Shown: one piece after another, positions 6,302 to 33,147 of the stretch
Layout of the letters: each line of letters begins with the position of its first letter
Numbering within the stretch: the stretch's first letter is position 1
Assembly (NCBI GenBank): GCA_963709485.1
Contig: CAVPWE010000007.1
Span: 78,858-142,857, forward strand
Length of the DNA: 64,000 nucleotides
From: an uncultured delta proteobacterium
GTDB lineage: Bacteria > Desulfobacterota > Syntrophia > Syntrophales > Fen-1087
Direction: 5' to 3'
The notes under the pieces: model-generated
Seen by the model: only the letters and a program-made list of their open reading frames with translations
What the model was told of the DNA's origin: nothing
Database searches by the model: none
Made by a program: the position numbers and the translations under genes

Positions 6302-6346
6302 TGGTGGTCCGTGTGAGGATTGAACTCACGACCAACGGATTAAGAG
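6302..6346 (-). repeat. Partial tRNA-Lys copy 1 (3' half; distal att junction of island A)
   Basis: TGGTGGTCCGTGTGAGGATTGAACTCACGACCAACGGATTAAGAG matches 33073-33117 of the intact tRNA at all but 2 positions and has the same orientation. Confidence 0.85.
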
Positions 6347-7982: not shown

Positions 7983-8089
7983 GTTGGTTCAAAATTTCAA
8001 AAGAAAGAAAATTCTTATCAATTTAATTGAGAAGAGATTCAAGAAGCAAAAGAATCAATTGATTTCAACTCAATCTAAAGGAGTAAGCG

Positions 8090-8866: not shown

Positions 8867-8898
8867 AAGTCTTGAAACCTGATGTTAGGGAGGATTTG

Positions 8899-9489: not shown

Positions 9490-9543
9490 TGCACTTCTTC
9501 AAGATTCACAAGTTACTGAAAATGGATTAAGGAGGGGAAGGCC

Positions 9544-10164: not shown

Positions 10165-10467
10165 TCTGATTCAACAGAATTCAACGGCAATTTAAGGAGA
10201 CGACCATGAGAAGCATATTTCTAAAATGTGCGTTGTTCTTCTTGGGGTTGTTGACAGCATTTGTTCCTCTGAATCCCGCAGGGGCTGCACCTATATCCAT
10301 CGACATAACTGCCACAATAAGTTCGATTAGTGATTCGTATGGATTCTTGACTGGGCACATTGGTGTCGGTGACATCATCCACGGAACATATATCTACGAG
10401 ACAACCACAGCGGATACAAATGCCTTGTCCGAGGTCGGAGACTATCGGCATACGACTGCACCGTTCG

Positions 10468-13438: not shown

Positions 13439-14695
13439 TTGGACATACTGGTGTTGGAGCGGAAGGGTTTGAGCCAGCGACAGATCGCCGGGAGGCTGGG
13501 GATCAGCCGCAACACGGTGAAGAAGTACATCGAGAATCAGGGCTACCCGGAGCGAGATCGGAGGGAGCGAAACCGGAAGAGCCTGCTGGATCCATTTCAG
13601 GGCAACATCGCTGCGTGGCTTGAAGAGGACATGGGGTACAAGGCGACATGGATATATGATCATCTTCGTCCCATGGGTTTTGCCGGGAGCTATGAGATCG
13701 TCAAAAGAGCGGTGCACGCGATCAAGGAGGAACGTCAGCGGATCGCCTACATGCGATTTGAGACGGAGCCGGGCTGCCAGTCCCAGGTGGATTTTGGCGA
13801 GTTTCAGTTTGATCGGGCCGACGGCACGGTTGAGAAGATTTATCTCTTTTCGATGATCCTGGGTTTTTCGCGGAGTCTCTACGGTGAGTTCGTCGATCGG
13901 TGCGATTTGCCGACCTTTCTGGCTTGTCATATTCATGCCTTCGACCATTTCGGCGGCGTGACCGAAGAGATCCTCTACGACCGGATGCGGAACGTTTTCA
14001 TCAGAAAGTTAGCCGGCAAGGACCAGTTCAACGACAGCCTGACGGGATTTGCCTTGCATTACGGTTTCAAGCCTCAGGTGGCTCCGCCTTATGCCGCCTG
14101 GGTGAAGGGGAAGGTGGAGCGGCCCTATCACTTCATCCGGGAGGGGTTCTGGCGGGGGTACGGATTCAGTTGCCTGGAGACGGCCAACAGGGACCTTCTC
14201 CAATGGCTTCAGCGCAAAGAGCAGCGGGTTCATGGGACAACCCATGAAGTGGTGTCGGAGCGATTCGAGCGCGAGCGGCCTCATTTACAGGCGCTGCCGC
14301 CGCAGGCATTCGACACCTCCTGGCGGGTCTACCGCAAGGTGAACAAAGACTGCACTGTCCGTTTTGAAGGCAACAGCTATGTGGTGCCTCATACCCTGGT
14401 GGGGAAGGATCTTGTCCTGCGGGTCAAGGACCGATCCATGCGGATCTTTTCGGATGATCATCTGATTGTGACCTACGAAATCCCTGAGGGTAAAGGACAT
14501 CTGGTGCAGGACAAGCGATTTTACGAGGCGCTGAAAAAGGATCGCGAGATGAACCGGCGCAAGTACGGCCAGGGCAGACGCGGCAAGGGTCGCGCCAAAT
14601 GCACGATCAGCCCGATCAAGCCGCTCTATGACATGGATGTTGAGATCCGTCCGCTCCATATTTATGACGGCATGATCGGGGAGGTGCGGATATGA
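13439..14695 (+). CDS. istA: IS21-family transposase IstA
   Basis: The 418-aa ORF starts at TTG after an AGGAG RBS. It has an N-terminal HTH (GLSQRQIAGRLGISRNTVKKYI) followed by a DDE integrase core. Confidence 0.9.
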   Translation: MDILVLERKGLSQRQIAGRLGISRNTVKKYIENQGYPERDRRERNRKSLLDPFQGNIAAWLEEDMGYKATWIYDHLRPMGFAGSYEIVKRAVHAIKEERQRIAYMRFETEPGCQSQVDFGEFQFDRADGTVEKIYLFSMILGFSRSLYGEFVDRCDLPTFLACHIHAFDHFGGVTEEILYDRMRNVFIRKLAGKDQFNDSLTGFALHYGFKPQVAPPYAAWVKGKVERPYHFIREGFWRGYGFSCLETANRDLLQWLQRKEQRVHGTTHEVVSERFERERPHLQALPPQAFDTSWRVYRKVNKDCTVRFEGNSYVVPHTLVGKDLVLRVKDRSMRIFSDDHLIVTYEIPEGKGHLVQDKRFYEALKKDREMNRRKYGQGRRGKGRAKCTISPIKPLYDMDVEIRPLHIYDGMIGEVRI

Positions 14696-15462
14696 GCGAT
14701 GCCCTGGTCCTGGATCGCATCCAGAGCAGCCTGACAAGGCTGAGGCTTCCGCGCATGGGTGAGATCCTGGAAAGTGTGATGCAGTCGGCACAGGAAGGAA
14801 GCAAGAGCTATCTGTCCTTTCTCGACGCACTTCTGGAAGAAGAGGTTGGCTGTCGGGAACAGCGCCGGATTGAAACATCCCTGAAGATATCGGGGCTTCC
14901 CTTCATCAAGAGCATCGACGAGTTCGATTTTTCCTTTCATCCCAAGCTGGATCGCCAGAAGGTGATGTCCCTTTTTGATCTGACCTTTATCCGGCAGAAG
15001 GGCAATGTGGTCTTTCTGGGACCCCCCGGTGTCGGCAAGACCCACCTGGCTGTATCTCTTGCGGTGAAAGCCTGTCAGGCCGGCTTGAGCATCTACTTTA
15101 CCACCATGGAGGATCTGATCGGAAAGTTGAAAAAAGACCATGGCGCCGAGCGGAAAGGCAGAGGCCGGGGCTACAACAAATCGGCGCTGGTGATCGTGGA
15201 TGAGGTTGGCTATACGCCGATCGACAGAGAGGAATGCAATCTCTTCTTCCGATTCATTGCCAATCGGTATGAGAAGGCCAGCACCATCATCACCTCCAAC
15301 AAGGCCTTCTCCGACTGGACGGAACTGTTTCATGATCCGGTCATTGTCACGGCCTTTCTGGATCGCCTGCTGCACCACAGTGTGGTCATCAACATGCGGG
15401 GCAACAGCTACAGGCTCCGTGGAAAGGTCGGAAAAGAGGGGGTGGAAATGAGCCGGTCATAA
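14692..15462 (+). CDS. istB: IS21-family helper ATPase IstB
   Basis: The 256-aa product has a Walker A motif (GPPGVGKTHLA) and a Walker B motif (LVIVDEVGY). Its start overlaps the istA stop. Confidence 0.9.
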   Translation: MSDALVLDRIQSSLTRLRLPRMGEILESVMQSAQEGSKSYLSFLDALLEEEVGCREQRRIETSLKISGLPFIKSIDEFDFSFHPKLDRQKVMSLFDLTFIRQKGNVVFLGPPGVGKTHLAVSLAVKACQAGLSIYFTTMEDLIGKLKKDHGAERKGRGRGYNKSALVIVDEVGYTPIDREECNLFFRFIANRYEKASTIITSNKAFSDWTELFHDPVIVTAFLDRLLHHSVVINMRGNSYRLRGKVGKEGVEMSRS

Positions 15463-15665
15463 GGTCAGGGTGGCTCAGTTTTCACGACCGAAAATGGCTC
15501 ACTTTGAAAAGACCGTTGACAGCTATAACATCGTGTCGCAGGATGACCTGAAGGAGGCGGCCTTAAAGCGGGAGAAATTCAGCAGAAAACAGGCGGGACA
15601 GTTACAATTTGCCCAAAAATGAGGCAAAGGGGCCGAGATTGCGGCTCGTAACCCCTTGATTTCAT

Positions 15666-15711
15666 TGGTGGGCCGTGTGAGGATTGAACTCACGACCAAC
15701 GGATTAAAAGT
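15666..15711 (-). repeat. Partial tRNA-Lys copy 2 (junction between islands A and B)
   Basis: TGGTGGGCCGTGTGAGGATTGAACTCACGACCAACGGATTAAAAGT is identical to 33073-33118. Confidence 0.9.
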
Positions 15712-15865
15712 TATTTCATTATGGATTAGGCCACCTTAAGCCTTGTGTCCTCTCATGTGTTTTTACGGGGGAAAAACCCTTTTAGGCACATTCCAATTAT
15801 CCGCTTGTGTTTTCCTGTATGCGCTTGCATACTTCACAGGCACTTCACAGTAAAAGGCAACGGCA

Positions 15866-16453
15866 ATGGCAAAGGACTGGAAACTGGATAGAGAGCATGT
15901 TGATTTGTGGGCTGAGTGGTTCAAGACACATGTGCCGGTTTGCCATGTTCAAGAATTATGGAAAATCGGGCAGAGTCCTGAGGAACTAAAAAGATTTGCG
16001 GATAAATTCTATGCGGATTTCGAAGGCGTTTTTAGACGCGAAAACAAAACGAAGGAAGATGTCAAAAGTGCGCTTTACCGGTCTTTGGAAAAACTGACAA
16101 TATATCCTTTTACAAAGCGAAGAAAATATCTCTTGGAAGATACCTTAAAAGAGTATTATCTCATAATCCAGACATTTTACGGCGAGCTGTATAAGCACGA
16201 AGCAGAACCATTTGAAACGGTGATAAATGAGGATGACGAAGAAGAAGGGGAACTTACTGACAATCCAAAAATTCCCATCAAGAAGCCTGACGAAGTCGAA
16301 AACGAAATTATTGAGCGCATGGAACCTGATTTAGAGAAATTGAGAGAGCAAGGCAAAAGCACAAGAGAGATTGCGGCAGTATTGAAGGGACAAAAGGGGA
16401 TGTCAAAAAGCACGATTCACAGGCGATTGAAAAAGGAGACAACGAAAAACTAA
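15866..16453 (+). CDS. Hypothetical protein with acidic linker and C-terminal HTH
   Basis: The 195-aa product has a C-terminus GKSTREIAAVLKGQKGMSKSTIHRRLKKE that looks like a resolvase/sigma-r4-type HTH. I do not recognise a family for the N-terminal part. Confidence 0.45.
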   Translation: MAKDWKLDREHVDLWAEWFKTHVPVCHVQELWKIGQSPEELKRFADKFYADFEGVFRRENKTKEDVKSALYRSLEKLTIYPFTKRRKYLLEDTLKEYYLIIQTFYGELYKHEAEPFETVINEDDEEEGELTDNPKIPIKKPDEVENEIIERMEPDLEKLREQGKSTREIAAVLKGQKGMSKSTIHRRLKKETTKN

Positions 16454-16495
16454 AGTCAATGCAAGGTATGATTTCATCAGTTTGAGGTGGCAATC

Positions 16496-17014
16496 ATGAA
16501 AGAATTACTTTCGCCATTTTTCCGTGTCGCGTGCATCGTGATCTTTCTTCACCTGATCATGGCATGTGACTCAATGCAAAAAATGTATGAAGAACGAAAT
16601 GATTCTGATCTTGCAAAGGCTAAATATTTGGGGTCGGAAGAAATCCCACAGGTTGGTGCAAAGTGCGTTTTGACCACATCTTGGCGTGAGGGCCGCCTGT
16701 ATTATATTTTCAGAGCCAGCCCCCTACTGAATCCCAAAGAGTCATTGGAAAACAAACCCCAAGAATTTATAGACAAGGTTATGGCATCAAAGCGTTTTAT
16801 AAGTTCTCTTCAACTTAGGTATGGATACCCCACCTTTACTGTTAAATTGAAAGACCAAGGTGGCTTTGAGATTGTATCCATCGTAATGGCACAACCAACA
16901 CAAATAGTCGATAACGATAATACAGCAACAGGGATAGATCAGAGATCAAGTGTCGAATGCTCCAGAAAGAAGTATCGAGATATTTCAAGTTGGGAAGTTC
17001 AATGGCGGTATTAA
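16496..17014 (+). CDS. Hypothetical lipoprotein-like protein
   Basis: The ORF track gives 16487..17014. I chose the ATG at 16496, which follows a GAGGTGG RBS. The hydrophobic N-terminus ends LIMAC, which is lipobox-like. No family recognised. Confidence 0.4.
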   Translation: MKELLSPFFRVACIVIFLHLIMACDSMQKMYEERNDSDLAKAKYLGSEEIPQVGAKCVLTTSWREGRLYYIFRASPLLNPKESLENKPQEFIDKVMASKRFISSLQLRYGYPTFTVKLKDQGGFEIVSIVMAQPTQIVDNDNTATGIDQRSSVECSRKKYRDISSWEVQWRY

Positions 17015-17168
17015 TGCGCATTAACAGGGGCAGGTAAGTCGAAGCTATTCGTTTACGGAGAAATTGAGCGGTCAGCGGTAATTCCTTTCGATGAAATCAA
17101 AATTGTGCATCAGTCGGATAAACAAAGAGAAGCATTAATATAACATATATATCAAATACTTACTCCAG

Positions 17169-17199
17169 AAAGCCGGTAATTATTCACCGGCTTTTTTAT
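17169..17199 (+). terminator. Rho-independent terminator after the island B cargo pair
   Basis: The stem pairs AGCCGGT (17171-17177) with ACCGGCT (17186-17192) and is followed by TTTTTTATTTTTTT. Confidence 0.6.
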
Positions 17200-17284
17200 T
17201 TTTTTGTTCATGCATGGGACGGTTTCCGCATTTTGCGCGCTATCATCAGATTAAGAGCAAAAAACAATTCTGGAGGCAAAGGAA

Positions 17285-17521
17285 ATGAGACAGTCAAGCG
17301 CAAATGTACCCATCTTGGACATCTATCTAACTTCATTTTTATCCCTTCACGGCATATCGCCACAATTCACAAAACAAGGTTCGCGGATCGTTTTCGAGTT
17401 TCCGGCAAGCAAGGAAGTCAACCAATTGACGCGGGCGTACAATGAAAACCCGTCCGTTCATGTCTTGGATTTTGTCCATCACCTGAGACGGATTCGCTCT
17501 CAAATGCTGTCGGCGCGCTAA
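17285..17521 (+). CDS. Small hypothetical protein (DUF5659-like)
   Basis: The 78-aa ORF follows a GGAGG RBS. The pattern LDIYLTSFLSLHGISPQFTKQGSRIVFEF resembles the DUF5659 family seen next to primases. This is recalled from memory and is weak. Confidence 0.4.
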   Translation: MRQSSANVPILDIYLTSFLSLHGISPQFTKQGSRIVFEFPASKEVNQLTRAYNENPSVHVLDFVHHLRRIRSQMLSAR

Positions 17522-21189: not shown

Positions 21190-21391
21190 ACATGGTTCAT
21201 TCTATCAGTTTATGAAATGGACTTTTTCATTAATACCAATTTTCATTGCAGGGCTTGTTTCTGAAAATTCGTTGGTGTGGATAGCGGCATATGGAGTGTT
21301 CATCGTTACTTTTGGTCTAATAGTTATTTCAGAACAATTAGAAAATTTGATTCACTTGGAGGTAAAAGAAAATGGCAAAGGGAATTTATAA
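21182..21391 (+). CDS. Small two-TM membrane protein
   Basis: This is the internal ATG of ORF 21152..21391 and follows an AAGGAGAG RBS. The product MIEHGSFYQFMKWTFSLIPIFIAGLV...WIAAYGVFIVTFGLIVI has two hydrophobic spans. The ORF overlaps the XRE stop and the integrase start. Confidence 0.4.
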   Translation: MIEHGSFYQFMKWTFSLIPIFIAGLVSENSLVWIAAYGVFIVTFGLIVISEQLENLIHLEVKENGKGNL

Positions 21392-22472
21392 GCGCGGGCA
21401 CGTCTTCTGGATTGCCTATGCCTCGCTTGATGGAAAGGTTGTCCGTGAATCATCGAAATCGGAAAGATTCAAGGATGCCGAGACCCTTCTAATCAAGCGG
21501 CGGCAGTCTGTCAGAGAAGGGAAGATGCCGGAGATAAAACGGATCGGCAACCATTCATTCAATGATCTTGTGAAAGATTATCTGAAATTTGCCGAAAGAC
21601 AACGCGCTTTCAAGCAGAAAGAGCTTGTCATAAATCAGCTTAAAGAACGATTCGGGCAGTTACCGTTAAGACGATTCGACACAAGGCTTATTGAGACTTA
21701 TCAAAATCAGAAGAGATTGCAGACTGGGAACAAACCGGCAACGATCAACCGTCATGTTGCAACCATCAAGCATATGTTCACAAAGGCCGTTGAGTGGGAC
21801 ATGGTAGAGGAAGACACCTTGAAACGGATCAGACGGGCAAAACTGCTTGAGGAAAACAATAGACGGCTTCGCTATCTGTCAACGGAAGAATGTCAAACCC
21901 TGATTGATGCCTGTGACAAGCATCTGAAACACTTGAAGCCGATTGTTGTCATGGCCTTGAACACCGGCATGAGGAAAGGAGAAATCCTGAATTTGAAATG
22001 GGATGACGTTGACATGAAGCACGGCTTCATACTTCTATCCCATACAAAGAACGGAGAACGGCGGGAAATCCCGATCAATCCGACTTTGAAGGCACACCTT
22101 GAAGAATTATTCAAAGGGACTGTAAAGAGACCCCGGAAAATCAATGTGCCCTTTGTCTTCTATGACTATACAACCGAGAAACCATATAAAAACGTTCATA
22201 ATTCGTTTGTGTCGGCTTGCAAGAAGGCGAATATACGGGATTTCAGATTTCACGATCTGAGGCATACCTTTTCAAGTCAGCTTGTCATGGCAGGAATCGA
22301 TATTACAACCGTCAAGGAATTGTTAGGTCACAAGACCCTAACCATGACCCTCAGATATGCCCATCTTGCACCCTCTCACAAAGTCAAGGCCGTTGATATT
22401 CTGGATCAGGCCTTGAGCACTTCGCGAACTTCACAATTACTTCACAAAAAAGAAGGGATTGCAAATGAATAA
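21372..22472 (+). CDS. int: Tyrosine-type site-specific integrase (island B)
   Basis: The 366-aa product has the N-terminus MAKGIYKRGHVFWIAY. The catalytic region contains HDLRHTF, LLGHKTLTMTLRYAHL and the catalytic Tyr. The stop lies 23 nt before tRNA-fragment copy 3. Confidence 0.9.
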   Translation: MAKGIYKRGHVFWIAYASLDGKVVRESSKSERFKDAETLLIKRRQSVREGKMPEIKRIGNHSFNDLVKDYLKFAERQRAFKQKELVINQLKERFGQLPLRRFDTRLIETYQNQKRLQTGNKPATINRHVATIKHMFTKAVEWDMVEEDTLKRIRRAKLLEENNRRLRYLSTEECQTLIDACDKHLKHLKPIVVMALNTGMRKGEILNLKWDDVDMKHGFILLSHTKNGERREIPINPTLKAHLEELFKGTVKRPRKINVPFVFYDYTTEKPYKNVHNSFVSACKKANIRDFRFHDLRHTFSSQLVMAGIDITTVKELLGHKTLTMTLRYAHLAPSHKVKAVDILDQALSTSRTSQLLHKKEGIANE

Positions 22473-22495
22473 CACTTGCAACCCCTTGATTTCGT

Positions 22496-22542
22496 TGGTG
22501 GGCCGTGTGAGGATTGAACTCACGACCAACGGATTAAAAGTC
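22496..22542 (-). repeat. Partial tRNA-Lys copy 3 (junction between islands B and C)
   Basis: TGGTGGGCCGTGTGAGGATTGAACTCACGACCAACGGATTAAAAGTC is identical to 33073-33119. Confidence 0.9.
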
Positions 22543-22627
22543 AGTCGTTTCAAGCTGTTATAATTCAGCTTTTTCTATTCATAGCGTGGACACGGCTTTG
22601 ATATTCAAAGCGAATATGTGGACACGA

Positions 22628-23719
22628 TCACTTCCCGCCGGTCAACTTCCCGAGGACATCCGCCGCCTGCTCCAGGTGCTTTCCCGCAACATGAGTGTAG
22701 AACTCGGTCGTCGTGATCGCCTTGTGGCCGAGAAACTTCTGGACGATCCGGGAGCTGATCCCGGAAGCCATCAGGTGCGTCGCACATGAATGTCGGAACA
22801 GATGAGGCGTCACGCGCTTCGTGATCCTCGCATCCTTACATATCCGCCGGAGGGCTGTTCGGATGTCGTAAACGGGCTTCCCTGATCGTCCAGAAAGAAA
22901 GATATAGTCCTCGGCTTGCGACGTTTGCCCAGGAGCGGCGATCTCCATGAGGGAGGACAGCAGGGCCGGGGTCAAAAGGAGCAGCTTGAAACTGCCGCCT
23001 TTTTGCTTGACGGTCAAAGTCCGGTTGTCGATGTCGATGTCCTGACGGCGGATGTTCCTGGCCTCGTTCATCCTCAAGCCGAGTCCGTATAAGCACAGGA
23101 TCAACGCCCGGTGCGTCGGGCCTGCCGCCTCAAGTATCCTGACAATCTCATCGGGTGACAGCACCATCGGGATCGGGCGGGACTCCGGGAGCTTGCTGAT
23201 CTTTAAGATCGGGACGGACATATTTTTCTCGGTCCGGCACCATTTCAAGAATCCTCTAAAATAATCCAGTTCCTTGTTTACGGTGCGGCCTGACGGGGCC
23301 TGTCGCGGGACTTTCTCCCGGGCCTTGACCTTGACCTTGTTTCGTGTCTGCTCGGCCTTGCGGAGCTTCTGGTACAGCGACAAATGCTCGTTTGTGAGTC
23401 CTTCGATCCGCTTGTCCCCGAGCAGCCGGGACAGGTGGGCGTCGTATGTCAGATCGACATCCTTCCATGTCCAGGGGCGCGATGGAGTTTGTACCACTGG
23501 AGATATTCGGGAAAGAGATCATCGACCAGGGCGGACCGATCAGGCGGTCTGTTGCCGAGCTTTGCGGCCCGGTGCATGGACTTTATGTCCCGCTCGTATT
23601 GCTCGGCCTCCGCACGGTCCGTGATCTCCGGGGGCAGGGGCAGCCGGACGCGGCGGCCATGGCGTCCACCGAGGCAATAGTCGATCACAGAGCGGATCTT
23701 TATGCCAGTTTACGGCCAT
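22628..23719 (-). pseudogene. int: Tyrosine integrase of island C, reading frame broken once or twice
   Basis: The catalytic part is ORF 22628..23497 (HLFRHSCATHL, LGHKAITTTEFYTHV). The N-terminal SAM-like part is ORF 23449..23688 (...DDLFPEYLQWYKLHRAP). The two frames join if one C is added to the C4 run at 23474-23477 (G4 on the plus strand). A possible upstream ATG at 23719 (MAVNWHKDPL) is in a third frame. Confidence 0.7.
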
Positions 23720-23735
23720 GATTGTGTTCCTGATT

Positions 23736-23770
23736 CAGATGGGCGGAACCGTTCCGCCCATCTGTTTTTG
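23736..23770 (+). terminator. Perfect 14-bp palindrome followed by T5 (terminator-like in plus orientation) just upstream of the island C integrase start
   Basis: CAGATGGGCGGAAC (23736-23749), a single C, then GTTCCGCCCATCTG (23751-23764), then TTTTT (23765-23769). Confidence 0.45.
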
Positions 23771-24628
23771 CCGCGTTCAAGTTTCCTGACTGCCCCCCCC
23801 ATGCAGAGGCCAAGCTGGGGGATATTGCCGAAGGCGATACCGAAGCCTAAATTAAGCAAGGCCATCAATGGTTCACTGCGGGCACTATCACCCTGCCCCC
23901 TGGCGTGTCCAAGCAGACATCCACCGGGCGCAGACCATCGGCAAATCCGACATCGTGTCATTTTTCATATAACATAAATTTATTGAAAAATATCTGACTT
24001 TCTTTTAATGCGCTTTATTAAGTAATCAACTCAATCAATAGAGGGGCTTGACTTGAAATCTGAATTTTAATCTTGACGTTGCAAAGGGGTTACAGATCGA
24101 GCGGGGCCGTTTCCGTGAATGGGTTGTCAACGAATACATCAAACCATCCGTCAAGGCGTCGGGGGCGGGAACGCGGGCCGTTTTCACACTGCAAGACGTT
24201 TATCTGATCGCCCTGTTCCTGCATCTGATCGAGTACGGATTCAACCGTGCATCCGCCGGGGCTTTTGTGAATGACTTCGCTGAAAAAATCAAATCGGAGA
24301 AGAAAAGGGGAGTTTACCCGGAAACCGTCTATATCGTTTTTCGCGATGGGGAAGTTGAACGCTTCGGGCCTGGACCGTGGAAGCTTGACGTTCAGTCGTT
24401 CACTATTGATTGGGCGTCTTTCAAACCCCAAATTCGCAGTGACGGGGAAAGAGTGTCAGTTTCCGGCGGGCAACATGGACGTGCAAGTGAAAAAGGATGA
24501 GGATTGGAAGTCTGGACACGTCGTGAACTTTGGGGCATTGCGGCGAGAGGTCGATGCGGCAATGGAGAAGATTTAATTTTTTTTGCCAGAGATATTAAGC
24601 AAGTTGCTTAATGCACAAGGGGGTTGAA

Positions 24629-24838
24629 ATGGAAAGGGCAATTTTGTGGCCGTTGAAAATAGCGATCACGGAAAAGTTTAAGAGTCAATTCCAGTTCGCG
24701 CAGCACATGGGCGAACATGAATCGACCGTCTCCCGGGTTGTCCGGGGGGCGCATGAGCTTGACCAGGAGGACCAACGAGCCTGGGCCGAAGCCCTGGGCG
24801 AGAATTACGAGGCGTTATTCTGTGAGCGCAAGCCCTAA
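24629..24838 (+). CDS. Small HTH regulatory protein (XRE-like)
   Basis: The ORF track gives 24611..24838. I chose the ATG at 24629, which follows an AAGGGGG RBS. SQFQFAQHMGEHESTVSRVVRGAHEL fits a Cro/CI-type HTH. Confidence 0.55.
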   Translation: MERAILWPLKIAITEKFKSQFQFAQHMGEHESTVSRVVRGAHELDQEDQRAWAEALGENYEALFCERKP

Positions 24839-25127
24839 CATCGAGTCCCGCCTGGCAAAGATCGAATCCCTGCTGGAGGAGCTTCTCGGCCTCATGGCCG
24901 GACAGCAGCCGCCGGGGAGGTACGAGTACGAGCGGGCCTTGAAAGAGGCCAGCAGGGGCAACAGGAAGCCGTTGTATGAATACATCGCGAAGGGAGGGCG
25001 ACCAGGTGGAATCAGCGATTGACAGATTTTTTCAGATTCTTGACCAAACTTCTACATGGGGAACTTTGGTCACCGGGGCCGTGGCGGTGATCTGGATCAT
25101 CATGCCGGTGGTGGTGCGGTGAATACC

Positions 25128-26069
25128 ATGTCCGCCAAATACGCCGAGGCCCTGGGCAACATCCCGCCGCCGGGGTGCGGCTGCCATCCGTTTCTGCTCT
25201 CCGTGTCGAATTACGGGGTCATGGCGGGCCTTTCGCCCGAGACCATATACTCGGACATCTCGGCGGCCATCCCTCCAGGGGAACGGCGCATCTCGGACCG
25301 GGAGATCGAGTCGGCCATCAAGAAGGCACTGCAGGACCACGGCAAGGGCGGAGGGTACATCCCCCGGAAGCCGGAGCCGGTCGTAAAGGACGGCCGAGCG
25401 GCGCGGGAACGGATCATCAACAAGGCGCGGATCACGGACGAAGCGGACCTGTGGGACGCATCCCCGATCCGCCTGTGGGATGAACCGGACCAGGACGCGG
25501 TCCTGTTCCTCAATGTGGTGTTCCTCCCCGACGACCAGGTCTGGATCGGGGAGCGTACCGATCCGGGCATCCTCGGCGTGAACATCAAGTCCGCCGCCGT
25601 ATGGATCGAACATTTCAAAGCGGGCGGGACATCCGGCCCGTTCATCATCATCAATCCCCTGTCCGGCAAGTGGGCAAACGTCAAGGGCGGCGATGGGATC
25701 ACCTTCCGGGGCGATAATAACGTGGCGGATTTCGCTCATTGCCTTGTTGAGTTTGACAACATCCCCCGAGAGGAGCAGCTGCGGTTTTGGGCCGCCGCAA
25801 ATCTTCCCATCGTCGCCTTGATTGATTCCGGCGGCAAGAGCATTCACGCCTGGATCGAGGTTCAGAAGCTGGCGGTCGTGAACACGCTTGCCGAGTGGCA
25901 GCAGCACATCAAGTGCCGCCTCTATGACGGGAACCTGGTCCCGATGGGCGTTGATCCGGCCTGCTCTAATCCATCCCGCCTGTCCAGGCTACCAGGACAT
26001 TTCAGACAAGAAAAAAATTCATATCAGAAAATCCTTTGGCTATCGCCGGAGGGGAGGACGATCCAATGA
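25128..26069 (+). CDS. Archaeo-eukaryotic-primase (prim-pol)-like replication protein
   Basis: This is the internal ATG of ORF 25056..26069. The acidic motif CLVEFDN and the motif SGGKSIHAWI fit AEP motifs I and II (DxD-like and sGxGxH). The ending SRLSRLPG is typical of plasmid/satellite primase domains. Confidence 0.5.
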   Translation: MSAKYAEALGNIPPPGCGCHPFLLSVSNYGVMAGLSPETIYSDISAAIPPGERRISDREIESAIKKALQDHGKGGGYIPRKPEPVVKDGRAARERIINKARITDEADLWDASPIRLWDEPDQDAVLFLNVVFLPDDQVWIGERTDPGILGVNIKSAAVWIEHFKAGGTSGPFIIINPLSGKWANVKGGDGITFRGDNNVADFAHCLVEFDNIPREEQLRFWAAANLPIVALIDSGGKSIHAWIEVQKLAVVNTLAEWQQHIKCRLYDGNLVPMGVDPACSNPSRLSRLPGHFRQEKNSYQKILWLSPEGRTIQ

Positions 26070-27136
26070 ACGGAATGGATGGGTTTGAGAATCAGGCACG
26101 GGCAGCGCAACTGCTGCCGCTTGTCAGCGCCGCCGCCTACCTGGAACATGAGCCGCCGGAGCCGGATCAGATTTTCACGGATACGCTTGATGCGGGCGAT
26201 AAAATGACCATCATCGCACCGTCAAAGCTCCGCAAGTCCTTTTTTACACAGCAAATGGCCCTGTCACTCGCAGCCGGTCGAGACTTTCTGAAATGGGAAG
26301 TCCCGAAGGCCCGCCGTGTCCTCTACTGCCAGTTTGAAATCAAGTCGAACCACAGCCACAGGCGAATCCGTAATCTTGCCAAGGCGATGAATCTCCATCC
26401 CGAGGACATCGGGGATCGCCTCATGGTTGTCAACGGGCGCGGCCTGGGCCTGATCGGACCGGACGGGGTGAAACGGATTCAAGAGGCGGCTGCGGCATTC
26501 AATCCCGAGGTGATTGTATTCGATCCCCTCTACAAGATCGCCGGGGGAGTTGAGAACGCTGCCGAGGATATGAAAACGATTCTCAACAGCTTTGATGTCC
26601 TGGCCGAGCAGACCGGAGCCGCGATCATCTATGTTCACCATGATCCAAAAGGATCGCCGGGGGAGCGTGACCTTCGGGATCGCGGATCAGGATCGAACGT
26701 CCTGGGCCGTGACTACGACGCGGCGGTCATGCTGACGCCTCACGCATCGGAAGACGAAGCCGCGGTAGTGGAGACCATCCTCCGCAACTATCGGCCACAG
26801 GAACCATTCACGGCCATCTGGGGCGAGGATGAGGGCGGCGGATACTGTTTCCGCATCGACTATGACATCACGCCGGAAAAGAAGACAGCGAAGAACAAAA
26901 CGCCGAAACTGCCGATGCCTGCATATGCACCGACAGCCGCCCAAATCCTGGGCGACGGTGAAATGGACATCGGGCCGTTTAAAACTGCCTTCAAAGAAGC
27001 AACGGGGCTATCCGATGGGCGTATACGTGACTTCATGCAATGGGCAGAATCAGGTGGAAATCCGTTCATGAAATCGGACGAAAACAGAGGCCGAGGGCAT
27101 TACCGAAAATGGGTTTGGCTGAACAAAAAGAAATAG
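26066..27136 (+). CDS. RepA/AAA_25-like (RecA-fold) ATPase, putative replicative helicase
   Basis: The start shares an ATGA overlap with the prim-pol gene. Walker-B-like VIVFDPLYK and the blocks IIYVHHDPKG and RGSGSNVLGRDYDAAVML follow the RepA-helicase pattern. The P-loop is atypical (APSKLRKS). Confidence 0.6.
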   Translation: MNGMDGFENQARAAQLLPLVSAAAYLEHEPPEPDQIFTDTLDAGDKMTIIAPSKLRKSFFTQQMALSLAAGRDFLKWEVPKARRVLYCQFEIKSNHSHRRIRNLAKAMNLHPEDIGDRLMVVNGRGLGLIGPDGVKRIQEAAAAFNPEVIVFDPLYKIAGGVENAAEDMKTILNSFDVLAEQTGAAIIYVHHDPKGSPGERDLRDRGSGSNVLGRDYDAAVMLTPHASEDEAAVVETILRNYRPQEPFTAIWGEDEGGGYCFRIDYDITPEKKTAKNKTPKLPMPAYAPTAAQILGDGEMDIGPFKTAFKEATGLSDGRIRDFMQWAESGGNPFMKSDENRGRGHYRKWVWLNKKK

Positions 27137-27290
27137 GCTTGTTAGGCTTGTTAGGCTTGTCAATAAATAGGACGCAAAGCCTAACGGCCCTATTATAGGC
27201 TTTGGCTTGTCACCTATATTATAGGTGACGTGCCAAAGCCTAAAGGCCACTGCACGACCAAAATTATTAAATAGGCTTGTCACTCTTATT
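27134..27290. repeat. Iteron block with a perfect palindrome: candidate replication origin of island C
   Basis: TAGGCTTGT occurs three times in perfect tandem (27134-27160), with further copies at ~27197-27209 (TAGGCTTTGGCTTGT) and 27272-27280. Inverted copies CAAAGCCTAA lie at ~27175-27184 and ~27233-27242. The palindrome GTCACCTATAT/TATAGGTGAC lies at 27209-27229. Confidence 0.55.
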
Positions 27291-27546
27291 TGAGGGGACA
27301 AAATGAAAAGGCGAAAATACCGAGGTCGGCCATTTTGGGACGATAACCCGATAACCAGGAAACCGATCTCCATGCAGCAGAAGATCGACCGGGTGCTGGA
27401 ATGCCTGGGGCCTGGGGCCATCATTCCAGGGAAAGTTACTCATGTTTCGGTACAGCACGACGCGGATGTCCAGCTCTAAAAACTCATAACCTGGCCGATT
27501 GTACCTGTGACTTCGATGTCGGGGTAAAGAAGCCGGACGCCTGACC

Positions 27547-27843
27547 ATGCAAATGCCATTCGGAAAATATTGTGGCGCGGACCTGGGGGACATCCCGGAC
27601 AGTTACCTTGAATGGCTGTTCGGCCTGGAGGACTTGCGGGAGCCGCTGCGGTCGGCCGTGATCCTGGAGCGGGCAGCACGTCGGCGGGACTTCTACGACG
27701 AACCTTCGGCAAATATGCCGGATGTCCAGGACAGGGTGCGGTCGGTATATCGGGAGCTGTCTATCAAGTACCATCCCGATACAGGCGGCAGCCATCTGGC
27801 GCAATGTGCGATCAACGAGTTCTATGAACGGGTAAAGCAATAG
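27547..27843 (+). CDS. DUF3820-like N-terminus fused to a J-domain-like segment (HPD motif)
   Basis: MQMPFGKYCGADLGDIPDSYLEWLF resembles DUF3820. VRSVYRELSIKYHPDTGGSHLAQCAINEFYERV resembles J-domain helix II, the HPD motif and helix III. Confidence 0.5.
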   Translation: MQMPFGKYCGADLGDIPDSYLEWLFGLEDLREPLRSAVILERAARRRDFYDEPSANMPDVQDRVRSVYRELSIKYHPDTGGSHLAQCAINEFYERVKQ

Positions 27844-27852
27844 GGGGTGGTC

Positions 27853-28149
27853 ATGGAATCCGAATTGAAGTTTATGGATTGGACGAAAGACACGGACAGA
27901 ATGAAGGAATGGAAAAGCACCAAAAGCTGCGGAACGGTTAAGTATATCAAAAGGCACGATAGCATTGTCATCGATCCGAAGGGACATGAATACTATATTG
28001 AAATGGACAGGCTTAAGACGGCCGAACAGGCTTTCTGCTGGATATGCCATCTCCATCAAAAGATATGGTTCACGCCTCAAATGCTGTCCGATCTTGTTTA
28101 TGTCATAACCAGGACAACGACGATAAACGAATACTGCGACAAGGATTGA
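27853..28149 (+). CDS. Hypothetical protein
   Basis: The ORF track gives 27847..28149. I chose the ATG at 27853, which follows GGGGGTGG. The region is locally AT-richer. No family recognised. Confidence 0.35.
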   Translation: MESELKFMDWTKDTDRMKEWKSTKSCGTVKYIKRHDSIVIDPKGHEYYIEMDRLKTAEQAFCWICHLHQKIWFTPQMLSDLVYVITRTTTINEYCDKD

Positions 28150-28161
28150 CGGAGGGACATC

Positions 28162-28422
28162 ATGGACAATCAAGCGTTTGAATTGAGGCGGTTAGGTTTG
28201 CGGCAGATGATGGGGCAGGAGCAGTTCATTGAGCTTTACGATCAGGAGCTGTCCTCCCTGCTGGAGGAAGTCAAGGCCGATCCTGATGAGGACCGAAGGC
28301 GGGCGCAGACCGAGCGACTAAAGACAGATGGCAAGCATCAGATCGCATACTTGATGTCGCTATACATGGCCGGATTGCAACGTGGCGAGGATAAGGAAGA
28401 GGTCGAGCAATGCCAAAGCTGA
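28162..28422 (+). CDS. Hypothetical helical protein
   Basis: The 86-aa ORF follows a GGAGGG RBS. The sequence is charged and looks coiled-coil-like. No family recognised. Confidence 0.35.
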   Translation: MDNQAFELRRLGLRQMMGQEQFIELYDQELSSLLEEVKADPDEDRRRAQTERLKTDGKHQIAYLMSLYMAGLQRGEDKEEVEQCQS

Positions 28423-28565
28423 AACGATGTCGGGTCAAAGGCTGTCAGCGTCCAGTGTTTTATCAAGGATATTGTAGGGCCTGCCTCAATCGCTTTGCTT
28501 GGGGGACAGCCGATTCGTTACTGGCCGCCGGCAGACATGGAGACGGCGACAGTGCAGCCGGATGA
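28410..28565 (+). CDS. Small 4-Cys zinc-ribbon-like protein
   Basis: This 51-aa ORF is below the ORF-track cutoff and overlaps the previous stop. The product begins MPKLKRCRVKGCQRPVFYQGYCRACLNRF. The C-x4-C ... C-x2-C pattern resembles short zinc modules common in phage HNH-type proteins. Confidence 0.3.
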   Translation: MPKLKRCRVKGCQRPVFYQGYCRACLNRFAWGTADSLLAAGRHGDGDSAAG

Positions 28566-28734
28566 GACAAGGAAAGAGGCAAGAGGATATGACCTACACA
28601 TACACCTGGAAGAACACCAGCAAGAGGGCGCAGTTGTGTGGCCGTGAATGTGAAGCGATCGCATTCTTCGTTAAGATGCGTTCCGCCTGGGTCCGGTTCG
28701 AGAACGGCCAGGAGGAATGTGTTAGACGCGCACA

Positions 28735-28998
28735 TTGAGAAGGAAAGATCGACAGCAGCAGCGGGCGGCGGCCAAGATGCTGGGGGTGAGCAAGTCAACC
28801 GTATTAAGAGATGCTGGTCCAAATGGACCAAAAACCACAGTCGCGCATGAAGAAAATCAGGCAGTTAGCGAGGGCGTTGGTCCAAATGGACCAAAGCCCT
28901 CTCCGCTCCTGGCGGCCATCGAGAAGACGGGGGAGACGGAAGTGATAACGATGGCTTACCGGGGCTATGATAGCCTTGTAGACGGCGCGGGAAATTAA
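28735..28998 (+). CDS. Small HTH protein containing two copies of an 18-nt palindromic repeat
   Basis: The 87-aa product has the HTH-like segment AAKMLGVSKSTVLRD. The peptide GPNGPK is repeated because of the DNA repeat at 28815-28832 and 28878-28895. Confidence 0.3.
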   Translation: MRRKDRQQQRAAAKMLGVSKSTVLRDAGPNGPKTTVAHEENQAVSEGVGPNGPKPSPLLAAIEKTGETEVITMAYRGYDSLVDGAGN

Positions 28999-29069
28999 CC
29001 ATTCGCGGTCGATCGCATTCAAATTATTAATGTTTTGCTTTGAAAAATATCGCCTAAATGGTGTGTTAA

Positions 29070-29523
29070 GTGTTTGAAAACCATAGAAAACAGGCAGAAG
29101 AAGCTGCGGATGTGCTGCGGCGGGATTACGACATAAGCGATTCTGCCGGTCTTTTGCTGCTGAAGAGCTTCACTTCAATCTACGCCTACGGAGTTGGCTT
29201 GTCAATCTTGAATGAGTAAATATGGGTTGTTGGTCAAGGATCGATTCGGACAACCAAAAGACCATCCGCTTTTGAAGATCCCCTTCGGAGACGCAAGGGC
29301 GCAGAAGCTTATGGTCCTGAAGGCGCTCGGCCTCGACTTCGCCGAGCAGAACAGCAGCGGTCCCGGCAGGCCGCCCGAGGGGGTACTGGATGAGATCGAC
29401 ACGGCGAGGCGGGAAACTGCCTGCAAAGCTGGACGGGTTCACGGAATTGCACCTTCTAACCGGCTGCTGTTTCTGTGGCTGCAAAGCCTGTTATGGTCCC
29501 GCCGGGATCGCGAGGCACAGTGA
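29070..29523 (+). pseudogene. Phage terminase small-subunit (P27-like) remnant, frameshifted
   Basis: ...RRDYDISDSAGLLLLKSFTSIYAYGVGLSILNE* ends at a stop at 29217-29219 and continues in another frame as KYGLLVKDRFGQPKDHPLLKIPFGDARAQKLMVLKALGLDF. Together these fit the P27 terS pattern (dG l v.DRFGQ.k.hPll ... LgL). Confidence 0.4.
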
Positions 29524-29979
29524 GAAGGAAGCCTACGCCATGAACGAAAACGCAAGGGAGCTTTGGCGCAGGCACAGAAACGCCCTGCTGCTAATCTGGC
29601 GTGATGCTGACGCCCTGCCGACTGGCGGCGGGTTCTCGGCAAAAGGACAGGCAGGCTGCAGTCAGTGACTTTCCCTGCTATTCGGAGGTTGTGTTTGACG
29701 GCATAAAATGGCCAAGAAAGGATGGCAAGTGGCCGCCTGTGGTCAAGCATATTTGGGGGCATATTGACGATCAGTTGAAACGATGAACATACCGCCACGG
29801 GACGAGGCACAGGTAAGAGGATGCCGCGTTGTAAAGCACATCCCGCCAGGTTGGTGAGAGTCGCGACCTCATCCGCATGGCCAGGCCGCCGCTGGGCTTC
29901 TTCCCGGATCTGCCGATGGAAAATCACAGATCCGGGAAACCATATGCAGCACAAAACTAAAAATAAGAGGTGATTGAAA

Positions 29980-31235
29980 ATGACCAAGAGACGAAGAAAA
30001 TATGAAAAAGTACCCGATAGGTCCACGCGATCCACGCGAATGCGAAACGTGAACGGCGGGCGCTTACCGATCAAGAGAAGCAGCTCATCCGGGAATTTCA
30101 AGAGCTTCAGAATGAGGAGTTCCGCGATCTTCCCGCAAACCGGCCTTTGACACTCCAGGGGCCGAGCGGCAGCGGCAGCCGGTCCCGTGAGGGGTCCGTT
30201 CAAAAACCTGGGCGAGCAGATCGGGCTGGTTGTCAGAGCGGGAACACCTGGCGGAGAAATCGATCCCAGACTGCATGAGATTCGCGCTGCGTCGGGGCTT
30301 GGGGAGACGGTACCTCTGAGGCCGGATTCCTGGTTCAGAGAAGTTTTTCAAATGATCTCCTCCAGCAGCTTTACCAGACCGGCGTCCTGCTCCCGCGCTG
30401 CCGCCGCATTCAGATCGGCCCGAACAGCAACGGGATCAAGATGAACATGATCGATGAGACCTCCAGGGTCAGCACCCGCAGCGGCGGAATCGTCGGATCT
30501 GGAAGGACGAGGCCAGCGAGCTTACGGCCAGCAAGCCGAAGTTCAGACAAATCGGGTTGAATCTGAAGAAGCTGACGGGCATCTGTTATCTGACGGATGA
30601 ATTAATTGCGGACACGGTTGCGCTGGAGAGCGTGGTTTCACAGGCATTCGTGTCCGAGTTCGGATTTTTGGTCGATGACGCCATTTGCAATGGAACCGGG
30701 GCAGGGCAGCCACTTGGACTGTTGAATGCCGGTTGTTTGGTATCAGTTGCAAAGGAGACCGGGCAGAAAGCGGCGAGTGTGGTTTATGAGAACATCACAA
30801 AAATGTGGTCGCGTCTTTTGCCGCAATCCGAAGCAACCGCGGCATGGTACATCAATCGGAATATCCTGCCGCAGCTTTACGCCATGAGCCTCTCCGTCGG
30901 AACAGGTGGTGTTCCGGTTTTCATGCCCGCAAACGGCCTGTCGGGGCTTCCCTTCAATACGCTGCTCGGAAAGCCGGTCATCCCGATCGAGCAGGCGGCA
31001 ACGCTCGGCACGGTTGGCGACATCATCTGGCCGACCTAAATTCCTATATTGTGGCGGAAAAGGGGAGAATCGAGCAGGCGGGACCAGTTTGCATGTAAGA
31101 CTTTTTGTTCGATGAGGCCATTCTGCGGTGGACATATCGTCTTGATGGCCAACCAATGCTCACGCATCCGCGCTGACGCCCCACAAAGGCAGCGATGCGC
31201 TTTCGCCCTTTGTGGTCCTGGCAACGCGGGCCTGA
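29980..31235 (+). pseudogene. HK97-fold phage major capsid protein gene, broken at five or more places
   Basis: The longest intact piece is ORF 30557..31039 (LTGICYLTDELI...GTGAGQPLGLLNAG...PVFMPANGLSGLPFNTLLGKPVIPIEQAATLGTVGDII). The N-terminal coiled coil, the FKNLGEQIGLVVRAGTPGGEIDPRLHEIRAASGLGETVP block and the C-terminus LADLNSYIVAEKG...SPFVVLATRA lie in other frames. Confidence 0.7.
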
Positions 31236-32228
31236 CATTTAACACGGTCGCGGGGCTTGACGGTCCGGGCCTTTAGATCATGCTCTCTCGCGGGGGCATG
31301 AACTGCAGGTGCGGGATCCTGTCGGGTTCGCCCGGTAAGTCCCGATGGGGACAAGCCGGAGAGTGTCCTCATTTCAGAAACAACCTCCGGCGGACCGGAG
31401 CGGGGGTCTCCACTCCCGTGATCCTGGCAGCCTGGTGGCCACCACCACCAGGTGATCGAGAGGGACGCGGTCGCCTCCGTGCCTGCGCTCCTCTTTTTAC
31501 TCTCCTCTCCAGGCGGCCATGCACGATCACGACGATGTTGAACGAGTCCCTTAACGCGACGGCATCATTCGCCTGTGGAACGCGGTCACCTTGAATGCGA
31601 TTGAACGATTCGGTGTATCGGAGTCGATCACCGGCGGCACAGGCGGCGATGGAGCTTCTACTTTAATGAGTGAAACATCTTTTTAGCAGCGGTATGCGAG
31701 TTCTCTCACACCAGAAAGGGCCAGGGAACTGATCCGCGGGCCGCATGACGGCTTGCCAGGATCGACGAGGTTCAACGATCTGTGACCGGCAGGGGTGACG
31801 GGATGGGGTAATTTTCTAATTGAGCACAAAAGCCGAAGGGGGTCAGGCTATGACCACCACAGTGGTAGTCAGTGACCAACGTTTTGTTAGTCGGGGGGGG
31901 AGATGATCGTTTATCATCATATGGGTGTGGACGCAACAAGGCACACGAAGATCAAGGCCGTCGTCTCCTTCGATCACAGAAACGTGCCGCCGCGCGCAAC
32001 CGGCCATCGTTCGACAGGACGGTGGGGCCATCGGCCTGCGGTCCTGGACTGCCCTGAGATTACGCGCAAGGTGGAGAAGGCGGCGCCGGGGGAGTTGGCG
32101 GCCGTGCCGGAAGCTGGGGTTCATGTAGTGCGGTGATGGAGCACGTTCAAGGGTGGCGAATATGACAGCCGGGAGGAAGTGGGAATCTAATTCCGCAAAT
32201 TGCAAAATAGATTCCCAGGCCGAGGCCG

Positions 32229-32547
32229 TTGCTGGACATCGAGGCGCGGATCGGGGAGCTGCTGCCGAGTCCAGAGAGGAGGCAAGCCGAAAATCGGGGC
32301 ACAATCGCCCGAATAGGGAAGACCTACTCCCAAGGAAGAAAAAGTGCCAAGGGGTGTACCCGAAGGGATCACCCGAAAGAAGGCCCATCAAGCCCGGACG
32401 ATCAAGGCGCATCCGGACATCGTGGCCCGCGACTTCCTGCAGAAGGAAATGGCAAAGAATTTAAGACTTCTGGCAAAATTGCCAGAGGTCTTTTTCGCCA
32501 ACGAGCATGCTTTCGATACTGCGAAGGGCATCGGGCATCGGTCGTGA
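32229..32547 (+). pseudogene. Decayed phage-type gene (frameshifted), family not identified
   Basis: LLDIEARIGELLPS... (ORF 32229) and ...PRGVPEGITRKKAHQARTIKAHPDIVARDFLQKE (ORF 32344) are consecutive pieces of one protein pattern but lie in two frames. Confidence 0.25.
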
Positions 32548-33044
32548 AGTGATTCTCAAGCGAGTTTCTCTTAGGAGGTTCATGGAAGGAATGGAGAGGC
32601 TTTCTTTTCTAAATTTATAAGAAGGGTGGAAGACGTGTCTAAATTTATACACGACTTTTTGCAGAAGGAGATGGCCGAAAAGGTGGAATGAGTTATCTGA
32701 TGAATCTATCAGAAAACTCTTTCGAGAGGGATGAGAGGTCGCTGATAAAATCTATGTTCGAGCGATCTATTCAAGGATGGCCATGCTTTTAACACATGCA
32801 AAGCACAGGGCGTTGGTTGATGACCTTGGAAACCGTTCCGGGTTGCCCGCGACTTTCTGCGGCGGCGGATGGCGGGGGATTGGAGAGAGTGTCTAACTTT
32901 ATACACTGAGCTATTCTGATGAGGATGTGCTATGGCTTTAGGTCTGCCAAAGGGCCAGGGCATCGGATGGCAGACCATCCTCAGAGTTTCTCGGCGGTTC
33001 ATGGAAAGTTGGTCAAGTGTGGACAAACGTGGACACAGTAAAGA

Positions 33045-33067
33045 GGGCCTCCCCTTCGGGAAGCCCC
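33045..33067 (-). terminator. Hairpin immediately downstream of tRNA-Lys, supplied by the end of island C
   Basis: On the minus strand, GGGGCTTCCC GAAG GGGAGGCCC starts 6 nt after the CCA end and is followed by TCTTTAC. The stem has 9 bp with one mismatch. Confidence 0.4.
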
Positions 33068-33072
33068 GTAAT

Positions 33073-33147
33073 TGGTGGGCCGTGTGAGGATTGAACTCAC
33101 GACCAACGGATTAAAAGTCCGCTGCTCTACCTCTGAGCTAACGGCCC
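33073..33147 (-). tRNA. tRNA-Lys (anticodon UUU)
   Basis: The reverse complement GGGCCGTTAGCTCAGAGGTAGAGCAGCGGACTTTTAATCCGTTGGTCGTGAGTTCAATCCTCACACGGCCCACCA folds by hand into a cloverleaf. It has a 7-bp acceptor stem, D arm GCTC/GAGC, anticodon loop CTTTTAA, T arm GTGAG/CTCAC with loop TTCAATC, and an encoded CCA. Confidence 0.9.

Follow-up and report, generated by a model that had tools for sequence, protein, structure and literature searches.

Does a capsid remnant standing alone beside a tRNA gene belong to a decayed prophage or to a phage satellite? The question is raised by island C (22543-33071), an element located in a stretch of 64,000 nucleotides (hereafter the window) of contig CAVPWE010000007.1, assembly GCA_963709485.1, from an uncultured delta proteobacterium of the order Syntrophales. 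An initial annotation, made from the letters of the sequence, had assigned to this island the gene order of a satellite similar to the phage-inducible chromosomal islands (PICIs) rather than that of a prophage, and had described it as decaying. According to the present analysis, island C is probably a full-length, inactivated member of a family of tRNA-integrating elements of ~7-11 kb with a satellite layout, and in particular of the subset which carries genes for a capsid protein and a small terminase (terS).

Gene order of island C between its attachment repeats

Island C is flanked by perfect 48-bp direct repeats (22495-22542 and 33072-33119), with a repeat-to-repeat spacing of 10,577 bp. 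The right repeat is the 3′ part of tRNA-Lys(ttt) (33073-33147, minus strand), which is the sole tRNA gene of the window. The adenylosuccinate synthase cluster places the host in the Syntrophaceae. The features that determine the reading of the island are the following:

22495-22542, no strand: left attachment (att) repeat, a displaced copy of the tRNA-Lys 3′ end, common to island B
22628-23722, minus strand: tyrosine integrase pseudogene (PF00589, 9e-32), with two frameshifts at ~23700 and ~23473
23950-24090, no strand: AT-rich divergent intergenic switch region (GC 27-35% vs ~55% around it)
24611-24838, plus strand: small XRE-type helix-turn-helix (HTH) regulator (phrog_2328 transcriptional repressor, 3e-6; HTH_3, 0.0033, sub-threshold)
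25128-26069, plus strand: predicted AEP-superfamily primase-polymerase (prim-pol; phrog_2597 "DNA primase", 8e-19), of a family without a Pfam model
26066-27136, plus strand: RepA-like AAA_25 ATPase (PF13481, 1.5e-30), a putative replicative helicase/initiator
27131-27295, no strand: iteron block, a putative origin of replication, with TAGGCTTGT three times at a 9-bp period from the RepA stop codon
29085-29385, plus strand: putative terS pseudogene (P27/Terminase_4 type), its N-terminal part in another frame and with an in-frame stop
29973-31235 (about), plus strand: pseudogene of an HK97-fold major capsid protein (MCP) of the 427-aa type, which changes frame at least five times and is interrupted by an in-frame stop
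33072-33147, minus strand: right att repeat, located in the intact tRNA-Lys(ttt) gene, the target of integration

The integrase gene is broken. Its intact homologs P0256 and P0257 from other metagenomes (362 aa) are 91-92% identical to the window copy, and in tblastn searches with these two proteins the window copy splits into two frames, with the N-terminal MAVNW in a third. Just outside the integrase start there is a perfect hairpin (23736-23764), whose 14-bp arms enclose a loop of 1 nt; a T-run comes next on the plus strand, and the structure may be either terminator-like or a protein-binding site. The switch region reaches its GC minimum (27%) at 23950-24049 and holds an 8-nt inverted repeat (23960-23991). 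The HTH regulator probably starts at the ATG at 24629, after an AAGGGGG ribosome-binding site. Its homologs are found at the same position in the relatives L002, L021, L063 and L128, and MerR_1 occupies the regulator position in L002 and L145.

For the prim-pol, no Pfam or NCBIfam match was obtained, and a Pfam domain is present in none of the 120 listed among its homologs, which number at least 1259. Residues E208/D210 and S238/H240 are invariant across 30 homologs, and we read them as the putative AEP acidic motif I and SxH motif II, respectively. The AlphaFold (AF2) model of the protein (pLDDT, the model's own confidence score, 88.9) has only two strong neighbors in the PDB according to Foldseek, both with a probability of 1.00, namely the AEP domain of the cyanophage S-2L PrimPol (6zp9, 1.6e-4) and the RSF1010 primase RepB′ (3h25, 1e-3). 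By this modelled fold, the prim-pol is assigned to the AEP superfamily.

The prim-pol and RepA genes overlap by 4 nt (ATGA), as seen in the coordinates as well as in independent gene calls. RepA matches positions 346-552 of phrog_2597 (1.7e-42) and the solved structure of the RSF1010 RepA helicase (PDB 1g8y, 1.3e-10). In the iteron block further TAGGCTTGT copies are located at 27204 and 27272, together with inverted AAGCCTAA copies. The motif AGGCTTGT occurs four times within 27135-27280, and none of 100 shuffles reached that match count in the window. The same iterons (TAGGCTTGTCA / AAGCCTAA) are present at the RepA stop codon of the relative L018, where most similar blocks differ in sequence: other relatives carry distinct repeats there, likewise with a 9-bp period. 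The iterons are conserved in position across relatives, and in sequence between island C and L018.

The left arm drawn in the initial annotation was recovered in all these parts, from the broken integrase, the AT-rich switch region and the small HTH protein to the ATGA-coupled prim-pol and ATPase with iterons directly after the ATPase stop codon. For the whole of 25128-27136, profile, solved-structure and fold evidence agree on replication.

In the right arm, part of the terS pseudogene (29164-29373) is 44% identical to the terS of the relative L026, which matches Pfam Terminase_4 above the cut-off (1.9e-5), and 41% identical to the terS of L031. The terS identity suggested for 29085-29385 by this similarity holds only through relatives. 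The central piece of the capsid gene matches PF05065 (1.7e-25), and tblastn shows its pieces in alternating frames against the MCP of L018 (58% identical) and phage MCPs (68-70% identical). It is of the fused 427-aa type, as in L018, and a short match to a 137-aa phage protein corresponds to the N-terminal part of the fused gene. The nearest capsids (68-70% identical) belong to ordinary phage head modules with the order terS, large terminase (TerL), portal, ClpP, 137-aa protein, homing endonuclease, MCP and connectors. The nearest deposited phage capsid is that of Clostridium phage CWou-2020b (55%).

No trace of flanking phage head genes was found beside the island C capsid. Portal, TerL, protease, tail and lysis genes were all absent from scans with Pfam and PHROG on the three forward frames of 28400-33072, with Pfam on long reverse-strand open reading frames (ORFs) and by tblastn with phage probes, in agreement with the initial annotation. 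Since the layout consists of integrase, regulator, primase-replicase with iterons, terS and capsid, and nothing else is phage-derived, the satellite-like reading was accepted. The HK97-type capsid gene proposed earlier proves to be a pseudogene, and the decay is confirmed by breaks in the integrase, one small ORF, terS and the capsid, while the regulator and the replication genes are still open. With integrase, terS and capsid broken, the island has therefore lost excision by its own integrase and its own packaging functions.

A family of small tRNA-bounded relatives

The scan with the prim-pol alignment, taking one genome per species, revealed 49 loci, and a metagenome scan added 236 further loci, 80 of which were kept. 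The 49 loci are mostly from Syntrophales, Desulfobacterales and Syntrophorhabdus. The family is mainly one of Syntrophales and other Desulfobacterota, with further representatives in Nitrospirota, Bacteroidota and the Verrucomicrobia/Lentisphaerae group. Its backbone consists of a tyrosine integrase, small HTH regulators, a prim-pol translationally coupled to RepA and an iteron origin at the RepA stop. As in the window, a minus-strand tRNA follows the prim-pol at a distance of 5.5-8.5 kb in many loci.

Twelve distinct relatives are bracketed by exact repeats of 26-61 nt (45-64 nt when extended), which correspond to the tRNA 3′ end in the checked cases. Their size is 7.4-11.1 kb (median 9.8 kb). 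Island C, with its 10,577 bp, falls within this range and is therefore full length for its family. No full-length prophage was found among the relatives; those with the same backbone are small and bounded by tRNA-derived repeats.

An intact MCP gene lies between RepA and the tRNA in six relatives (L018, L026, L027, L031, L071 and L083). For instance, the MCPs of L027 and L031 match PF05065 over its full length (~1e-77), and L031 also encodes a ClpP prohead protease (3e-31). The locus L036 runs out in a ClpP gene at the contig edge. P27-type terS genes are present in L026, L031, L071 and L083, and a different terS-like small protein is found in L018 and L027. In L026, L031 and L071 the order is terS, small ORFs and then MCP, which is consistent with the remnants of island C. 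The ancestor of island C belonged to a subset of the family in which the backbone is extended by a P27-type terS and an HK97-fold capsid gene, sometimes also by a ClpP prohead protease, and from which portal, TerL, tail and lysis genes are missing. Five of the capsid carriers are complete and repeat-bounded (9.1-10.4 kb), and their only ORFs of at least 300 aa are those of the integrase, prim-pol, helicase and MCP. Portal gave no match in the ~50 loci whose downstream sequence reaches at least 6 kb, and no TerL was found among the capsid-carrying relatives. The satellite layout proposed by the initial annotation is largely supported by these discrete relatives of 7.4-11.1 kb, five of them with intact capsid and terS genes.

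A variant with the same backbone carries a GpA-type TerL and neither capsid nor portal. It is represented by L002 (9338-11191), L063 (7203-9029) and L067. L063 also has a terS-like HTH protein and is listed as a viral contig in IMG/VR, and the element of L002, whose prim-pol is the closest to that of island C (75% identical), also carries YqaJ. These TerL-carrying variants possibly follow a different hijacking strategy.

The backbone itself is a mosaic. Next to the closest prim-pol (75% identical) stands a RepA of only ~24-32% identity, and the closest integrase (79% identical) accompanies a DnaG-type primase and AAA_25. In the capsid carriers L026 (9986-10924) and L027 (about 10001-10933), the prim-pol is split or not callable as one ORF, which reflects either decay that is common in the family or frameshifts in the metagenome-assembled genomes (MAGs). 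After the capsid of L018, at 16152-17408, the cargo resembles, to the eye only, a toxin, an HTH antitoxin and a SecB-like chaperone.

Known satellites, phages and competing explanations

PICI is used here for an architectural class defined by the five SatelliteFinder core components (PMC10085698) and is assigned by layout, not by homology. In this sense island C largely fits the five-component layout of the PICIs. Similarly to the PICIs and the Staphylococcus aureus pathogenicity islands (SaPIs), it is an element of ~10 kb at a specific att site, with an integrase at one end that is divergent from the regulators, a primase and a replicase followed by an adjacent iteron origin, and a small terminase, as a remnant recognised via L026. 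The regulator component is present as a divergent layout with a small HTH repressor-like protein. In the capsid-morphogenesis position there is an HK97 MCP homolog, a pseudogene in the window and intact in relatives, which may have had a size-redirecting role similar to that of Ccm. Genes for tail, lysis, holin, portal, TerL and head-tail connectors are absent from the island C scans, as they are from PICIs.

Island C also differs from the known members of this class. More than 99.9% of the PICIs in the survey belong to Proteobacteria or Firmicutes (PMC10085698), whereas the hosts of the island C family are Syntrophales and other anaerobes. The uncharacterised AEP prim-pol and the AAA_25 RepA are likened to SaPI Pri and Rep by layout only. 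The regulator is a small XRE-type HTH protein and not a demonstrated AlpA, MerR or Stl homolog; when the regulator module was checked against the PICI definition, none of these three had a match in the window. The Ccm of SaPIbov5 is a homolog of the capsid protein of its helper (PMC8569155), and by analogy the island C capsid gene may fill the role that Ccm has in this cos-type island. It differs in being a near-complete phage MCP gene (55-70% identical to phage MCPs), and one relative has its own ClpP.

The capsid-forming PICIs (cfPICIs, e.g., EcCIEDL933) resemble island C in that a left arm of integrase, regulator and primase is followed by a phage-derived head module. As in the island C family, this module contains terS, MCP and sometimes a protease, and there are no tail or lysis genes. 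However, the definition of cfPICIs needs TerL, portal and head-tail adaptors (PMC10085698), and no ORF fit for a portal or a TerL exists in island C or in the five complete capsid-bearing relatives. Island C therefore does not fit the cfPICI layout.

The P4-like satellites share with island C a size of ~10-11 kb, integration into a tRNA gene and a fused or coupled primase-helicase. P4, whose 11.6 kb fill a T=4 head, remodels the helper capsid by the external scaffold Sid and not by an MCP homolog. By comparison, the size of the island C family (9-11 kb) would suit a small capsid. Psu, Delta, Sid, Ash and alpha were not found in the ORFs and frames of island C with the generic Pfam and PHROG libraries, as distinct from dedicated SatelliteFinder profiles.

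Metagenomic HK97-like phages of the L009-L013 type and CWou-2020b have a capsid 55-70% identical to that of island C and a P27-family terS. These phages differ in having full head-tail modules (TerL, portal, ClpP, connectors and tail), and only the capsid gene is common to them and island C. Phages of the L009-L013 type, which have the nearest capsids, are possible candidate helpers. In three of them an ORF of 232-235 aa (L009, 2505-3203; L010, 9287-9985; L011, 377-1084) is located between the separate 137-aa protein, equivalent to the capsid N-terminal domain, and a 302-aa MCP; the copy of L011 has a faint LAGLIDADG_3 match. The TerL of L010 (2358-6185, 1275 aa) shows weak or faint intein and LAGLIDADG matches.

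Several observations weigh against the satellite reading of island C. Searched directly, the terS remnant had no match in Pfam (E up to 10), NCBIfam or PHROG, and tblastn with two phage terS was negative; the small-terminase remnant of the initial annotation stands by its likeness to L026 and falls short of a profile match of its own. Phage capsids resemble the window capsid more closely (68-70%) than do those of other family members (33-58%), and the module may therefore have been separately acquired or be a passively captured fragment. About 80% of the same-backbone loci show no capsid, terS or TerL with the probes used. As the prim-pol is split in relatives, MAG assembly errors could add to the apparent decay. 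The IMG/VR scan revealed only two prim-pol relatives, one of them a TerL-type variant, so packaging has no virome support. Finally, 1.8 kb of island C (31235-33072) has no explanation.

The explanation which survives best beside the satellite reading, though we consider it unlikely, is that these elements are integrative self-replicating islands, plasmid-like or with defence and cargo genes, without a satellite lifestyle, and that terS and capsid are phage junk, captured by recombination, which never functioned in the element and decays for that reason. The distance of the window capsid from the capsids of the other family members suits this explanation, as does the mosaic distribution of prim-pol, RepA, integrase and right arm between relatives. 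Moreover, most backbone relatives carry, instead of packaging genes, cargo such as AbiEii, HicAB and insertion sequence (IS) elements. However, intact MCP and terS genes recur in at least five complete bounded elements from different orders at the same position between RepA and the tRNA, and the order terS, small ORFs, MCP is common to three of the relatives and consistent with the window remnants. Random capture would neither keep these genes open nor exclude portal and TerL each time.

That island C is instead the stump of a full-size prophage, after deletion of its portal, terminase, tail and lysis genes, is very unlikely. Both att repeats are intact and the size is that of the twelve bounded relatives, even though the right arm is badly degraded and deletions there are possible. 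The identity of the capsid to ordinary phage capsids (68-70%) would be in favor of such an origin, but the upstream head gene is represented by no more than its last 43 residues, and these match the N-terminal part of a fused 427-aa MCP as in L018. No remnants of protease, portal, TerL, connectors, tail or lysis genes were traced. The closest prim-pol does occur in an element with a GpA-type TerL and YqaJ (L002), which speaks for a prophage origin; the relatives found through the integrase (79% identical) have the same small replicon layout, and the relatives measure 7.4-11.1 kb between their att repeats.

It is hardly credible that island C is really intact and that its frameshifts arose in sequencing or assembly, as a metagenome-assembled contig, an indel that differs from an independent Logan contig and split prim-pol genes in other MAG loci might suggest. 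On both flanks, purA (433 aa) and serA (527 aa) are uninterrupted, and so are the prim-pol and RepA of the island. Within 1.3 kb the capsid gene changes frame at least five times and meets an in-frame stop, with diverged sequence between these breaks. The integrase is frameshifted twice relative to homologs of 91-92% identity, and the disruptions are clustered rather than uniform.

Neighboring features, possible life cycle and significance

Besides the genes discussed above, island C contains the following features:

24057-24576, plus strand: start-less open frame (147 aa), with a probable frame change near 24450
24594-24612, no strand: perfect palindrome ATTAAGCAA-G-TTGCTTAAT (9+9), just 5′ of the HTH gene
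27303-27545, plus strand: small Cys-rich ORF (80 aa when intact), frameshifted at ~27467 in the window
27547-27843, plus strand: 98-aa protein with a QSregVF_b/DUF3820-like N-terminus (PF12843, 5.7e-7) and a short J-domain-like segment
27847-28149, 28162-28422, 28410-28565 (Cys-rich) and 28735-28998 (weak HTH), plus strand: four small intact ORFs with sub-threshold matches only
31317-31395, plus strand: sub-threshold match to the Proteo-phage-1 RNA motif (Rfam RF03044; 34.9 bits vs a gathering threshold of 42), ~80 nt past the capsid stop
32340-32990, plus strand: three degenerate tandem units of ~200-220 bp, with a common 24-nt core CGACTTCCTGCAGAAGGAAATGGC at 32430, 32652 and 32850

The start-less frame has no ATG, GTG or TTG before 24267 and no Pfam or PADLOC match, and it may be another pseudogene in the regulatory region. 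A 163-aa protein of L063 at the same position was considered as its counterpart and was dropped (BLASTP E=33). The palindrome is a candidate operator.

The small Cys-rich ORF differs by a 1-nt indel from the otherwise near-identical independent Logan contig L001, and its homolog in L027 aligns over two frames. The 98-aa protein, which was described initially as a J-domain protein, does contain the sequence YHPD; its DnaJ match (PF00226, 0.0021) stays below the cut-off (18.5 vs 27.8 bits needed), and only the QSregVF_b segment on residues 1-24 passes. A homolog is present at the same position in L031. PADLOC indicated no defence system among the intact small ORFs of the island.

The Proteo-phage-1 match of the window covers the full-length model, and in L071 the motif is found above threshold (45.1 bits) at 5877-5965, plus strand, 3′ of the MCP. 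The match could represent an RNA or a DNA-level site such as cos/pac. Its interpretation as a general feature of the family was rejected, as it is confined to the window and L071 and absent from the other members and from the L009-L013 phages. Further to the right, the first tandem unit encodes a 67-aa ORF that is 39-40% identical to a small ORF beside the GpA TerL in L002 and L003. Reverse-strand ORFs of the right arm had no family matches and were taken as shadows of GC-rich DNA, not as genes.

The tRNA-Lys 3′ end is present in four copies in the window (6301-6348, 15665-15712, 22495-22542 and 33072-33119), with 3, 1, 0 and 0 mismatches, respectively. The extra diverged copies at 6301 and 15665 therefore define three tandem islands at the tRNA-Lys locus, namely A (~9.3 kb), B (~6.8 kb) and C, all bounded by tRNA-Lys copies. 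The locus is an integration hotspot with serial accretion. Islands A and B were rejected as paralogues of island C, since they contain PEP-CTERM proteins, IS elements and HTH proteins. In detail, island A (7008-15462) has two PEP-CTERM proteins, a DDE_Tnp_1 transposase and an IS21-type istA/istB pair, and no integrase was recognised among its scanned ORFs. The integrase of island B (21372-22472, plus strand; 366 aa, PF00589 4e-35) is intact, stops 22 bp short of the att copy common to island C and is convergent with the broken integrase of the latter. The two integrases are only ~24% identical. In principle, the island B integrase could act in trans on the att sites of island C. No helper prophage, second capsid, portal or TerL was found within the 64-kb window.

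The architecture of the intact relatives suggests how such an element might live. A helper phage would de-repress it, the integrase would excise it, and the prim-pol and RepA would multiply it, starting at the iterons. The large terminase of the helper would be directed by TerS to the element DNA, and the capsid protein of the element would join or replace that of the helper, giving heads sized for ~10 kb, with portal, tails and lysis functions borrowed from the helper. Helper dependence, terS-directed packaging and capsid-size redirection are all drawn here from architecture only.

Almost all known phage satellites come from Proteobacteria and Firmicutes, and no published description of such elements, or of satellites, in these bacterial groups was found in the literature. 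Tentatively, the prim-pol/RepA elements may constitute an undescribed, widespread satellite family of anaerobes from Syntrophales, Desulfobacterales, Syntrophorhabdus, Nitrospirota and the Verrucomicrobia/Lentisphaerae group. Its basis would be a new AEP prim-pol replicon, to which exchangeable modules for hijacking are added, and never a portal. The modules would be terS with a full MCP, with or without the ClpP protease, terS with a GpA-type TerL, or neither.

For annotation, the locus shows that an isolated capsid pseudogene beside a tRNA is not necessarily what is left of a prophage. Island C, itself dead, is of value mainly as a pointer to its family, and intact elements for studies of capsid-size redirection are available in L018, L026, L027, L031 and L083. 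If the satellite-family reading is true, syntrophic and sulfate-reducing anaerobes would have their own satellite family, with a replication module that has no Pfam model. Hijacking by an own capsid protein and terS, without portal or TerL, would then place the capsid-bearing type between the classical PICIs and the cfPICIs, with its own shell and a borrowed portal, motor and tail.

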